Notes: generated by a model from the sequence alone, not told the origin. Positions 44,979 to 60,918 are shown, counted from the first letter of the whole stretch. The stretch is 60,918 nt of DNA, filler included, from Globobulimina sp. (GCA_003354225.1; 19 parts of 19 records of this genome joined end to end with filler, not necessarily neighbours in it), one strand, 5' to 3'. A program made the numbers and translations.

Positions 44979-45695
44979 AACAAACAACGAACATTCTCGA
45001 TTAAAAAACGCCAATATTTGATAGGCGGTTATGTGAGACAATATTTTAACAAAAACGGAATTAACACAGTAGTACCACCGGAAATAATGAGCATAATTGA
45101 CGAATACGAAATGGATGTTTGGGATATTACTACAAGCAATGTTTTAGTTTATTACAATGAAGCAGCACAAATCGGATTGGAAATTGATAATAAAAAAGGA
45201 TTGATAAAATTTATAGCAGATGAAAGGTTTGGATATCTCAATGCCTTCTCATCGCACATTATATCGAAAGGCATCAAGCATTGGGCGATTCGCATAATTC
45301 AGGGCGAACATTTCTGTGTCGGTGTTATTGATCATGTTTCTGTTTCTATTCATAAAAGCATGCAAGTGGAATATACAGACCCTTCGAGTCTGAAATTGAT
45401 CAAAGGATATGGATGCTTTATAAACTATGGAAACTCGTATGGTTATCTGAGTGATGGGTCGTTGATAGCACAAGGCAGTCAAAAAACAGTTGGATGTGTT
45501 GAAAAACAGTTTGGTTCTTCCGATGTTATTGGCATAATACTGGATATGAATCAGCATAAATTAACTTTCTACAAAAATGATAAGCCAACGCATGAGTGTT
45601 ACGTTGCAGAAAAGCAAAAATATAAACTAGCTGTATCTGCGATATATATACATGTGGAATTGCCGTTGCCTCCAATGTTGATGTTGTTCGAATAA
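44979..45695 (+). CDS. SPRY/B30.2-domain protein, 5' partial
   Basis: GIKHWAIRI, FCVGVI, DVIGIILDMNQHKLTFYKND, YKLAVS; N-terminal LIGGYVR...VPPEI motif. Confidence 0.75.
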   Translation, partial: NKQRTFSIKKRQYLIGGYVRQYFNKNGINTVVPPEIMSIIDEYEMDVWDITTSNVLVYYNEAAQIGLEIDNKKGLIKFIADERFGYLNAFSSHIISKGIKHWAIRIIQGEHFCVGVIDHVSVSIHKSMQVEYTDPSSLKLIKGYGCFINYGNSYGYLSDGSLIAQGSQKTVGCVEKQFGSSDVIGIILDMNQHKLTFYKNDKPTHECYVAEKQKYKLAVSAIYIHVELPLPPMLMLFE

Positions 45696-47072: not shown

Positions 47073-48086
47073 TTATTTTTTCTTTAAAAATTTTGTAACC
47101 ATTTTATGATAATGTTGAGCTTGTCTTTTATCCATATTATATATCTCAATTTCACCCTTTTTAAAATATATTTTGAATCCTCTTTTTCGCTCAATATGAA
47201 TAGCAGATATTTTCTTAATTTGCTCTCTATTTACAACAAACCAGTCCTCCCATTTATGTCCATTTAATTTTGTAAAAATAATGTTTTTACCAATCTGTAT
47301 TCTTCCGACCATATCGTCCTTATCTCCTTTTAAATGCATTGTCGATGACATATTTCTATTTTTAGCAAATACTAACTTATCCATTTTAGGATCACCTTCT
47401 TTCCACGCAATTTGTTTATTGCTGCTCAATTGTTTTAAATCCTGACCAATGTTAATGGCCACATCTGTTAATGTCAACGTGTTACTTTTATTTTTATCTT
47501 TAAACTGAGCAATTAAACACCGACTAAAATATCCGCCCTTTGCAGTTTCTTCCACTTCAACACCCTGACAATTTCCATAAAGACTACAAATCAAATCCAT
47601 TTTATGTCCGATTGTTGGATCGCCTCTTATTAAATGGCCGCCATTTTTATCATCACGACAACAGTCAATAATAAATAAGCGAGGTATTTGAGCTGCGGAT
47701 TGCTTCCATGCTCTACTTACCATCGCATGCAATTCCTGAATGGCAATATTTTTTATTTTTTTATTGCCATCATAGTCGCTCGGATATATCACATTATTCC
47801 CGCCGTGGCCACAGATTATAATCATAAGAGAGTCATAAATAAGTTGCCGTTTATTGTATTTACTGACTAATAATTCCCGGCCATCTTCAATAAAATCAAT
47901 TATCTCTTTTTGGAGCCATCTTTTTTTACCAAACCACTCTTTGTCATTTGCGGTCGGATAAATATCATATCCATACTCTTCATGCCATAGTTGCCGATAA
48001 TTATTAATATCCGTTGGGACACCCATTAGGTTTTGAAGTTGGCCATTATCATATTCTGAGATACCAATCAATAAAACCAACACATT
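47073..48086 (-). CDS. Caspase-like (clan CD, C14) protease domain protein, 5' partial
   Basis: VLLIGISEY...NLMGV..D, IIICGHG, PRLFIIDCCR (His-Cys dyad), GGYF. Confidence 0.8.
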   Translation of the reverse strand, partial: NVLVLLIGISEYDNGQLQNLMGVPTDINNYRQLWHEEYGYDIYPTANDKEWFGKKRWLQKEIIDFIEDGRELLVSKYNKRQLIYDSLMIIICGHGGNNVIYPSDYDGNKKIKNIAIQELHAMVSRAWKQSAAQIPRLFIIDCCRDDKNGGHLIRGDPTIGHKMDLICSLYGNCQGVEVEETAKGGYFSRCLIAQFKDKNKSNTLTLTDVAINIGQDLKQLSSNKQIAWKEGDPKMDKLVFAKNRNMSSTMHLKGDKDDMVGRIQIGKNIIFTKLNGHKWEDWFVVNREQIKKISAIHIERKRGFKIYFKKGEIEIYNMDKRQAQHYHKMVTKFLKKK

Positions 48087-57810: not shown

Positions 57811-59501
57811 AATCGTATTGCTGCCCGCTAACGTTTTTATCTCTTTTTCAATCCTTTGAGGAATGCCTTCATATAACATGTTCCCTCCACTCAATACAAC
57901 AGAATTATATAAAGCACTTTTAATGTCCATATCCGTTTTCATAATGGATGAATATAACGATTTATGAATACCTTCTGCTTCTAAACCAATCAAATGTGGT
58001 TTAAATAATATTTCCGGTGCTTTAAACCTTTCAGATCCAATGGTAATAATGTTTCCATCCGGCAATTCATACATTTCTTCGATAGCAGAACGTTTTTTCA
58101 TTGCGTCCTTATAATCCAATGCAACATAACATAGCGTTTCTTTTATATCTCTGACAATTTCTTTTTCTGCAGTTGATATAAATGAATATCCTCTTTCTCT
58201 CAATATCTTTTGCAAATATTCTGTTACATCTCTTCCGCCCAAATCCATTCTTTTCACGGCATGCGGGAAGGAATACCCTTCGTACACTGGCACTGAATGT
58301 GTGATACCATCACCTGAATCTAATACCATTCCCGTTAGTTTTCCAGTGGAATATAATGATAATACTGCTTGGATTGCTATGTACAATGCTGGACAGTTAA
58401 ATGTTTCAAACAGAATTTGCGCCATTTTTTCTCTATTTTGTTTGGGATTTAACGGTGCTTCAGTCAATAACATGCGATAATCTTCGGGATTGATTTGTAA
58501 TTCATTGTAAAATGTATGCGACCATAGTTTTTCCTTTTGTTAGCGCACAATTTATATGTATATAAATACAGACAACAACAAAAAATATGTACCATATAAT
58601 TCCAATTTGTAACAATGCCACGTTGGATGGGATAGTGTAACGACAGTGCACCTCTCCTCGTTTGAGCTTCGTGACCAATATAATAATCTTTTTGTCCATT
58701 CATCATAACTTGTTGGTATTTGGGGATACCAATAATGGACGGAAACGTTGTCGGGATATCACAATTTATTGCGCCTGCTTTAATGCTCCCGGATCCATTG
58801 TCAACCACTAATACCATTTCTGTCGACATATTATAATTATCGATATCATTATATTCGAATTCTTCATTGCAAGCATTCAATGTGTGATTTTTCACATTAT
58901 TTCCTATCATTGTTGTATTATTTGAGATTGCTACGTTTGGTTCTTTACTAATGGTCTTGATCGATATTGTGGTGATCATATGGTTTTGGTCCATAGTAAA
59001 TGTTGTTTTTGGTTGTGGGATGATATTATATTTCTGGCATACTTTAACATACAGCTCATATGGATCATTTTTATATTTTGTTAGCGATAACCACTTAGTA
59101 ATTTTGCATATTTGTGATTTGTCGTTAAATTGGCACAAAATGTTTTCAATTGTTGTTTTATATTTGTTTGTGTTTGTGCTCAAATTGTTATTTGTTTTCT
59201 CATTTCTTGTGTTCCTGTTTTTGATTATATTATAATTGTTATATTGTGATTGAGCGACAATATTATGTTTCCGGCATACTTTTACATATAACTCATGTGG
59301 ATTAGTTTTGTATTTTTCAATGGCAAACCATTTATCAATTTTGGATATTTTTGTGTTATCGTTACATTCATCAAAAATATTTTCTATTCTTGCTCTATAT
59401 TTCTTCAATACTTCCCTTTGTTGAGCTTTTTGATAGGAAATGAATGAATGTCTGCCACTGTAATACTGCGCTGATTGAGCTGATACAGATTTATTTGACA
59501 T
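57811..59501 (-). CDS. Actin-like protein with long N-terminal extension, 3' partial
   Basis: [19 protein letters not shown]; intron 58534-58592; [37 protein letters not shown]. About 225 aa precede the actin fold. Confidence 0.9.
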
Positions 59502-59518
59502 GCAGTTATATATTGTCT

Positions 59519-60277
59519 CTATGTTAGCAGTGATTGTTTGTATTTGTGCATACCTCTGAGTCTAGCAATTAAGTCCGCTTTTTTGTTTGATTGCAGCAAC
59601 TTAATCCATTGTCTGTTTAATTCTAATTTATATCCCTTTTCATAAAACTGTTGTTTATTTTCATGGAATACTGAGAATGTTGTTGATGATAAATCCGATG
59701 GCCACACAATTTGCAAAGAAGTTAATTTGCAATATTCAAGATTATGCAACAGCATCTTACATAAATGTGGATTAAATTCAAAATCATGATCAACTTTTGT
59801 TATCATTGATTTTCTACCATTTGGGTCCATATATGTATCGTTTTTGAGTTTAATGTTTGTGTCCGTCAAAGCAATGAATGTTTCTAAATCCGTTGGATAT
59901 CGTTTAAATAAATACTTGTTCCACCATAACTCGACAAAACGCAAATAATAATTGTTGTATTTTTTTAAATATTGATGAATCCAGAAAGGAATATTTGATA
60001 AACGCGCACCAAAGAAATAAGCAATCAGTTGGTTCAATTTGTCTCCACAATCATCAGATATTAACAAATCTGGGTACCTTTTAAACTCAGTTAGCCAGTA
60101 TAAAAAAGAACAGACAGCTTTGTTCCACGAACAATCAACATCCACAATATAATCGATGCATAACCATGCAATCTCTGTTGGTATCACACATGGATCCAAC
60201 GTATCTGTTCTTATGAACCCAAAAATAATGAAACTTTGAATCGTTTTCTGTTTGTCTTTGTTTTCCGATGTTGCCAT
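59519..60277 (-). CDS. Hypothetical ORF, probably the 5' exon of the actin-like gene
   Basis: Starts MATSENKDKQK; FIIFGFIR...IPTEI motif; a candidate intron at 59519-59553 splices in frame to the ORF at 59501. Confidence 0.65.
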   Translation of the reverse strand: MATSENKDKQKTIQSFIIFGFIRTDTLDPCVIPTEIAWLCIDYIVDVDCSWNKAVCSFLYWLTEFKRYPDLLISDDCGDKLNQLIAYFFGARLSNIPFWIHQYLKKYNNYYLRFVELWWNKYLFKRYPTDLETFIALTDTNIKLKNDTYMDPNGRKSMITKVDHDFEFNPHLCKMLLHNLEYCKLTSLQIVWPSDLSSTTFSVFHENKQQFYEKGYKLELNRQWIKLLQSNKKADLIARLRGMHKYKQSLLT

Positions 60278-60324
60278 TACAATTAATAGTACAAAACTCA
60301 GCTGGTAACGATAATAATCTAATA

Positions 60325-60918
60325 ATGACACAAGTGAACAGGAAAAAAAGAAAATTAGGTAAACAAGAAAAGGCAGATTCAGACAGTGATTACCAGCCAC
60401 AAGAACCACCTCGAAAAAAAAGTAGAAAGAATAGAAATAATAAACAAACTCCAAAAGCAAAAGCTAAACCGGAAAAAAAACGCGGATTAACGAAAAAAGC
60501 AGCAAATGAATTTAAGAAGAAAATGAATGGATTCGTTAAAAGTCTGGCTCGAATGGTGAATTTGGACTGGCACGATGGCTATGAAGAGCAAGGCGAAGAG
60601 TTACAAGAATATTTTCAATATTTACAGCAACCGGCAATGTGTGTTTATGAATATGTTATCAAACAGCGAGATTATGCTAAATTAAATGAAATATTAAAAA
60701 ATATGGCAGATAGTTGCGATAATATCCATGCCATTCCATTTCGATGTGGTGTAGAATTTGGTGATACTGAGTTTGATTTGCAAATAACTGAAACGAATAT
60801 GACAAAAAGATTTTACTCGCCTGAAACATTAATATCATTTTTATGGAGTGTAATGTTGTACGGAGTGAGTGGTAATGAGAATGTCGAAGATGAGGATATA
60901 TATCGATATATTAAATAT
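60325..60918 (+). CDS. Hypothetical protein, 3' partial (absent from ORF track)
   Basis: Open frame from ATG 60325 to the window end: MTQVNRKKRK... (basic, NLS-like) ...DWHDGYEEQGEEL... Confidence 0.7.
   Translation, partial: MTQVNRKKRKLGKQEKADSDSDYQPQEPPRKKSRKNRNNKQTPKAKAKPEKKRGLTKKAANEFKKKMNGFVKSLARMVNLDWHDGYEEQGEELQEYFQYLQQPAMCVYEYVIKQRDYAKLNEILKNMADSCDNIHAIPFRCGVEFGDTEFDLQITETNMTKRFYSPETLISFLWSVMLYGVSGNENVEDEDIYRYIKY

Follow-up and report, generated by a model that had tools for sequence, protein, structure and literature searches.

A spliced gene of Globobulimina sp. joins a lineage-restricted N-terminal domain and helical repeats to actin

The last contig (57811-60918; G+C 32.6%) of a 60,918-nt stretch of Globobulimina sp. 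DNA (hereafter the window; 19 contigs of ~3.1 kb each, with N spacers between them) carries two open reading frames (ORFs) on its minus strand, of which the downstream one runs into an actin domain. We find that the two ORFs and the actin domain are parts of one spliced, three-exon protein-coding gene of an AT-rich, short-intron eukaryote. The encoded protein begins with a domain that matches only proteins of the foraminiferan Bolivina argentea (the X domain), continues through a linker with helical repeats and ends in a conserved actin domain. We are fairly confident in this three-exon reading; the product would most likely be an ATP-binding, filament-decorating actin subunit.

The ORF structure had been described in an earlier note made from the sequence alone, and we see it as described: the upstream ORF runs from an ATG at 60277 to a TAG at 59521-59519, and the next ATG lies at 59501, with 17 bp between them. 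The contig stays free of stops for up to 365 codons, whereas 300 shuffles never gave more than 161, and thus the open frames far exceed chance. The earlier note joined the two ORFs through a 35-nt intron, segment 59553-59519, which reads GTATGC...GCTAACATAG. This segment does begin with GT, end with AG and contain a CTAAC, and splicing it out joins the ORFs in frame, giving 791 codons without a stop. In the scanned ranges, 24 GT..AG pairs could join both frames without a stop, so that an in-frame pair is weak evidence by itself.

Assembled contigs from sequencing runs supplied evidence on splicing. Eight runs contain part of the window, and RNA nature is recorded for none of them (0/8); X1, the best holder, behaves like DNA, and X6, X7 and X8 are RNA by guess. 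X6 and X7 represent one sample from one study, coded as another organism than X1, and their contigs differ from the window by ~3-4%, as from a relative ~96% identical. The run evidence consists of contigs rather than raw reads, in which rare variants are dropped, and so bears on exon joining rather than on expression levels, transcript ends or rare isoforms. In X6, a single 1926-nt contig (record 9) aligns in consecutive parts to 57813-58532, 58592-59479 and 59554-59823, with both introns gone. The two joints, both GT..AG on the minus strand, recur in X7 (records 17 and 18), and the DNA-like X1 records 2 and 7 are continuous through both introns. The joint across intron 1 is bridged by one contig in X6 (sides of at least 255 nt) and by one in X7 (side 100). 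Thus, both introns have GT..AG ends, are missing from the contigs guessed to be RNA and are retained in DNA-like ones; the RNA nature of the runs is favored by the loss of exactly these two GT-AG segments and by the very uneven depth of the gene and its neighbor. RNA-like contigs also cover exon 1 without a gap (59554-59823, X6 record 9; 59687-60153, X7 record 19; 59976-60279, X6 record 10).

These contigs uphold the joining of the upstream ORF to the actin ORF, an arrangement also conserved in B. argentea, and correct the intron through which it occurs. Instead of the proposed 35 nt, the RNA-like contigs skip 74 nt (59480-59553), from the same donor at 59553 to an acceptor at 59481-59480, 39 nt beyond the one first proposed, and no joint at 59519, the site of the 59518/59554 junction of the earlier note, is among those listed. 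Both the ATG at 59501 and the first-proposed acceptor (59520-59519) lie inside the intron that is removed. The frame is kept with either length because 35 and 74 are both 2 mod 3. For the intron in the actin domain, predicted at 58534-58592 with a GCTAAC ahead of its AG, the X6 and X7 contigs agree exactly.

The resulting gene model comprises 778 codons with no stop; it is truncated by the contig end, and ~830 residues are expected in full. X7 record 15 and X8 record 21 extend 144 and 212 nt, respectively, beyond the end of the window's contig. At the other end, a divergent gene ~48 bp upstream leaves no space for more upstream exons, unless they are nested. With the 74-nt intron of the RNA-backed model, the extension ahead of actin measures ~460 rather than the previously estimated ~470 residues, DNGSG being at residue 468. 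Finally, exon 2 of the relative contains indels that preserve the frame: in X6, one base is lost and another gained 5 bases away, which with insertions of 30 and 15 bases makes a net change of +45, and the net changes are +30 in X7 and −6 in X8. Whole codons are gained or lost throughout, which is the pattern of coding sequence under selection.

Independent support for the fusion comes from a second foraminiferan. A HMMER scan of 1.84 billion representative proteins with the X domain returned two matches, P0001 (1.8e-34) and P0002 (5e-4). Both, as well as a longer cluster member, P0003, are labelled Bolivina argentea (EukProt EP01084); Bolivina is a rotaliid foraminiferan. In BLASTP, the X domain matched P0003 over residues 11-241, as far as the exon boundary (3e-41, 35% identity). 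After its X domain, P0003 has four copies of the repeat and then 26 C-terminal residues that match the N-termini of actin and Arp1; among PDB matches to this tail at E ≤ 1, 45/46 were actin or Arp1 N-termini (best E 0.13). P0001 and P0003 therefore share with the Globobulimina protein the X domain (35-38% identity), 54-residue repeats (3-4 copies) and an actin N-terminus, in the same order, but have ~900 extra residues upstream, more repeats and an actin part cut after 20 residues. We infer the Bolivina actin domain from this one short match, at E 0.13. The occurrence of all three modules in one ORF, in unchanged order, argues independently for the fusion and by itself suggests a foraminiferan source for the window. 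In searches of P0001, P0002 and P0003 against Pfam, only chance-level rows were returned. Published sequence resources for Bolivina are transcriptomic and metatranscriptomic (bioRxiv 10.1101/2022.07.20.500910), and the EukProt Bolivina set presumably derives from those transcriptomic data. Residues 1-900 of P0001/P0003 match nothing in Pfam or the PDB and, by eye, contain an internal duplication near 90-210 and 270-390. An ADP-ribosyltransferase-like pattern (R...S-T-T...E-x-E), also seen by eye upstream in P0003, was unsupported by Pfam and PDB searches and was set aside.

The actin domain, in contrast to the other modules, belongs to a known family. Against a PF00022 cut-off of 27 bits, exon 3 scored 259.3 bits (6.2e-77) and the end of exon 2 scored 45.3 bits, and the best 60 PDB matches were all conventional actins (2.3e-106 for the exon 3 part). 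The alignment needs one 3-residue gap over actin residues 83-323 and two 1-residue gaps over residues 9-83, with no insertions of the type found in actin-related proteins (ARPs). The phosphate-1 (DNGSG, 58802), phosphate-2 (DSGDG, 58320) and adenosine (SGG) motifs are all present, as the earlier note had stated, and the phosphate-loop, catalytic and adenine-pocket residues D11, G13, S14, G15, K18, Q137, D154, G156, D157, G158, H161, K213, E214, G301, G302 and Y306 are kept; after SGG, N-M-L stands in place of T-T-M. In its hydrophobic plug and W-loop, the domain is close to a foraminiferan actin. Judged by these residues, the domain looks competent for nucleotide binding. It is, however, divergent: 207/308 residues (67%) are identical to an Ammonia actin, whereas two conventional actins from that hit list agree at 98.9%, and none of the best 120 of 8000 scored proteins (132-422 residues) exceeded 70% identity to it.

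Over its most conserved stretch (window 58331-58538), RNA-like depth rises to thousands. The deep contigs there most likely stem from other genes or organisms, being conventional actins of high abundance that align at 90% likeness. A joint from 58132 to 58397 appears in X6, X7 and X8 within these deep bins; it skips 264 nt between AG..AG ends, with a side of only 22, and we set it aside as a likely by-product of those actin contigs for its lack of GT-AG ends, its short side and its location.

The X domain resembles no annotated family. Pfam returned no family at E ≤ 1 for residues 1-241, none (F-box included) at E ≤ 10 for residues 1-80, and none of any kind for the ~460 residues before the actin domain. 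The ESM Atlas held no usable match for the N-terminal domain, and a metagenome scan with the N-terminal alignment gave 322 pattern matches, of which 0 were confirmed. Word-index protein searches with this domain found nothing at near or longer lengths; these searches missed even the known Bolivina proteins. Two structural hints emerged. In an AlphaFold2 (AF2) model of the X domain, only residues 141-232 reached a predicted local distance difference test (pLDDT) score of 56-79, and the best Foldseek matches, for a query model with pLDDT 49.5, were GNAT-type domains (E 3e-3; best, ICL2). The VIA-align scores, Z 6.4 with 3frm_A and Z 5.2-5.5 with FemX/FemA, were under the noise level of the tool. 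The acetyl-CoA loop of GNAT domains reads Q/R-x-x-G-x-G/A; by eye, no such glycine loop occurs at the expected place in the X domain. The PDB profile search pointed to the C-terminal subdomain of the F-actin-binding villin headpiece (1wy3_A), a non-significant best match (E 1.1) over 21 residues. Both the GNAT-like and the headpiece-like hints are below significance, and we treat them as leads only. A complex prediction for the N-terminal domain with Ammonia actin scored 0.00, in a run without controls, and counts neither way.

The N-terminal part does contain the motifs named by the earlier note, GFIR at 60220 and IPTEI at 60184. A twin of this motif (G-Y-V-R ... V-P-P-E-I ... Y ... D-V-W; position 45027) starts a contig-cut ORF at 44979-45692 on the plus strand, where it is followed by a SPRY domain (PF00622, 7.7e-8). 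A regular expression written post hoc for the motif found 2 places in the window, where 200 shuffles averaged 0.01. The shared GFIR-type motif may be a short N-terminal module of this lineage. As a relative of the X domain itself, the SPRY ORF was rejected: with the X-domain hidden Markov model (HMM), it reached a non-significant E of 4, at rank 29. The contig that carries it also contains a caspase/metacaspase-type domain (PF00656, 2.9e-12) at 47073-48086 on the minus strand.

Between the X domain and actin lies a low-complexity linker that bears two 54-residue helical repeats, parted by a disordered spacer in the AF2 model (Table 1). Repeat 1 matched the P0003 repeats at 1e-15. Outside Bolivina, the repeats resemble only generic three-helix bundles: Foldseek found nothing at E ≤ 1, the best VIA-align match had Z 5.6, the best PDB profile match was Nsp1 (E 0.1), and the ESM Atlas held no usable match. 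For the linker, Pfam gave nothing beyond chance level, and a metagenome scan with the repeat alignment gave 598 pattern matches, 0 confirmed.

Table 1. Exons, introns and protein modules of the actin-fusion gene, in window coordinates.
Feature	Position	Strand	Remarks
Exon 1	59554..60277	-	ATG at 60277; 241 codons and first base of codon 242
Intron 1, 74 nt, GTATGC...ATCAG	59480..59553	-	absent from X6 record 9 and X7 record 18; present in DNA-like X1 record 7
Exon 2: linker, two repeats, first 75 residues of actin domain	58593..59479	-	ORF and RNA-like contigs
Intron 2, 59 nt, GTACAT...AAAAG	58534..58592	-	absent from X6 record 9 and X7 record 17; present in X1 record 2
Exon 3: actin residues ~83-323	57811..58533	-	cut at contig end, ~50 residues missing
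X domain, lineage-specific, residues 11-241, ~230 residues	59555..60247	-	matches Bolivina proteins only
Motif G-F-I-R ... I-P-T-E-I ... D-x-x-W	60125..60220	-	conserved in P0003 and P0002
Weakly villin-headpiece-like segment, residues 88-107 (F-G ... N-I-P-x-W ... L-K-K-Y)	59957..60016	-	PDB profile search, non-significant
Weakly GNAT-like unit, residues 141-232	59582..59857	-	predicted beta-beta-alpha-beta-alpha-beta-beta; ends F-Y-E-K-G-Y
Repeat 1, residues 262-317, predicted three-helix bundle	59253..59420	-	repeat HMM independent E 6.5e-29; AF2 pLDDT 75-86
Repeat 2, residues 343-396, predicted three-helix bundle	59016..59177	-	repeat HMM independent E 4.1e-27; AF2 pLDDT 77-83
Actin domain, N-terminal part, actin residues ~8-82, with DNGSG; D-loop one residue short	58593..58817	-	PF00022 6e-12; best PDB actins 5e-23

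How might such a protein work? In a filament, the N-terminus of actin points outward, so that an extension there should not hinder incorporation. The actin domain would bind ATP and insert into, or cap, filaments of ordinary actin, and the X domain and helical repeats would thereby be fixed on the filament surface, as a built-in decorating subunit. By analogy with the Dictyostelium protein filactin, an N-terminally extended actin that enters actin assemblies and probably behaves in this way, the protein would be an actin subunit that carries its own surface module.

Several observations weigh against the gene model or its proposed function. The spliced contigs all come from a single sample and study, with RNA nature only guessed and an organism code unlike that of X1, and X8, the sole RNA-like run that shares the code of X1, covers the gene in part and bridges neither junction. 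The Bolivina proteins end 20 residues into the actin fold, and the X domain is without a family and yields a poor AF2 model (pLDDT 49.5, from a three-sequence alignment). Within actin, the C-terminus is missing at the contig end, H73 is replaced by R, T148 by L and T303-T304 by N-M, and one residue is lacking in the D-loop; given these features, polymerization is not assured. The main alternative, which we rate as rather unlikely, is that the protein is fused as described but its actin domain acts outside filaments, either as an ARP-like, monomeric nucleotide-binding scaffold within some complex or in a form auto-inhibited by the N-terminal part. The substitutions and the shortened D-loop fit such a role, as does an identity of 67%, far under that between two conventional actins, and the second actin fusion of this genome, with its D-S-G-Y-K phosphate-2 loop, probably lacks normal ATP binding. 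Nevertheless, the absence of ARP-type insertions, the exclusively conventional actins among the best PDB matches and the likeness of the hydrophobic plug and W-loop to those of a foraminiferan actin speak for a subunit of filaments.

Other alternatives concern the gene itself. We consider it improbable that the 35-nt intron (59519-59553) is used, whether as the main form in the strain of the window or through an alternative acceptor. Its removal also keeps the frame, its CTAAC precedes the AG much as in intron 2, rare variants would be lost in contigs, and the spliced contigs come from a relative rather than from the window's strain; yet both bridging contigs enter exon 2 at the acceptor at 59480, and by eye the product of the 74-nt intron, R-L-R-A-Q-S-A-Q-Y-Y, fits K-L-R-N-A-Q-K-E-Y of P0003 better. 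That the locus is a decaying or neutral chimera, a pseudogene with no function, is very improbable: its RNA-like depth of ~6 is low compared with 50-190 in the neighboring gene, although depth is a poor measure, whereas the 778-codon frame is intact, the indels of the relative sum to whole codons, another foraminiferan shares the architecture at 35-38% identity, and the catalytic residues of actin are retained. Least credible of all is that two genes are present, one for a 252-residue protein and the other for an actin with a ~225-residue extension from the ATG at 59501, with the bridging contigs being artefacts or read-through. Both ORFs start with an ATG, the first also ends in a stop, and the RNA nature of the runs is a guess, but read-through or DNA would retain the two GT-AG segments that these contigs lack so exactly, the ATG at 59501 falls within a removed segment, and Bolivina has both parts in one ORF. 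The three-exon fusion gene thus remains our preferred reading.

Actin is among the most constrained of eukaryotic proteins and is nearly always a stand-alone protein of ~375 residues. To our knowledge, natural actin fusions are rare, and filactin is the documented case. The extension of filactin contains an Ist1-like region and filamin-type repeats; no such filactin-type N-terminal extension is present here, as the 460 residues before actin match no Pfam family. By analogy of layout only, filactin (Fia; Dictyostelium discoideum, also Physarum) is the nearest known kind, with a C-terminal actin domain behind a long unrelated extension, although the Globobulimina protein is not a member of the filactin family. 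The N-terminal parts are unrelated, a foraminiferan-only domain and helical repeats standing here in place of the filactin modules; the Globobulimina actin domain has diverged further (67% identity), and the organism belongs to Rhizaria rather than Amoebozoa. Filactin is described as having a bona fide C-terminal actin domain after several hundred unrelated residues (PMC2441452, PMC4758236) and as associating with actin structures (PMC5225641).

The earlier note had drawn a parallel with plant ARP8, and this did not hold. ARP8 combines an F-box with an actin-related domain; it shares with the Globobulimina protein an N-terminal extension before an actin fold, and the I/L-P-x-E-I motif here is superficially F-box-like, but the N-terminal part has no F-box or any other Pfam family, and the actin part, judged by its best PDB matches, appears nearer to conventional actin than to an ARP.

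In contrast, its count of two different actin fusions among the 19 contigs stands, at the ORF level. The second is an ORF on another contig (6431-8641, plus strand) that encodes, in one frame, the C-terminal half of actin and, beyond a glycine-rich linker, a VWA domain (PF13519/PF00092), and is cut at the contig start. Its actin part (PF00022, 6.3e-46) has conventional actins as its best PDB matches (3.5e-52), reaching the actin C-terminus. Here, too, an actin fold from this assembly forms part of a larger protein, but the order is reversed, with actin followed by VWA, and the two actin parts are 31% identical. The phosphate-2 loop of the actin-VWA protein is degenerate (D-S-G-Y-K), which makes ATP binding doubtful. 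We found no description of a foraminiferan actin fusion in the literature, in a search whose scope excluded supplements and the 2014 genome paper (PubMed 24332546). The accessible parts of PMC5455982 and PMC13371060 likewise contain no actin fusion in Foraminifera.

The divergent gene next to the actin fusion (60280-60918, plus strand) has its ATG at ~60325, ~48 bp from that of the fusion gene, and a lysine-rich N-terminus. Pfam assigned it no clear family (AUX_IAA, 0.0034, under the cut-off). Its first RNA-like contigs start at 60293-60309, so that the two genes would share a very short head-to-head promoter region.

The gene described here is an expressed actin fusion, as far as contigs guessed to be RNA can tell, and a conserved one, with a wholly unannotated N-terminal module. 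It also illustrates that ORFs or motif-based guesses at introns are insufficient on their own for gene models in this fragmented, short-intron assembly: with 24 in-frame GT-AG pairs on offer, the one that looked plausible was wrong. As a single gene that can be tagged, expressed and assayed, it provides a concrete handle on the biology of Foraminifera, which rests on an unusually dynamic cytoskeleton. We offer only tentatively, as a conjecture that may well fail, the broader idea that Foraminifera possess conserved, lineage-restricted, ‘self-decorating’ polymerizable actins that carry a novel (possibly GNAT- or headpiece-like) domain and helical repeats on the exposed N-terminus. If true, filaments of the reticulopodial network would be assembled from subunits that bring their own accessory or enzymatic module. 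Taken with the actin-VWA gene, such a family would suggest that this lineage habitually, and in a manner specific to it, fuses actin to other modules.

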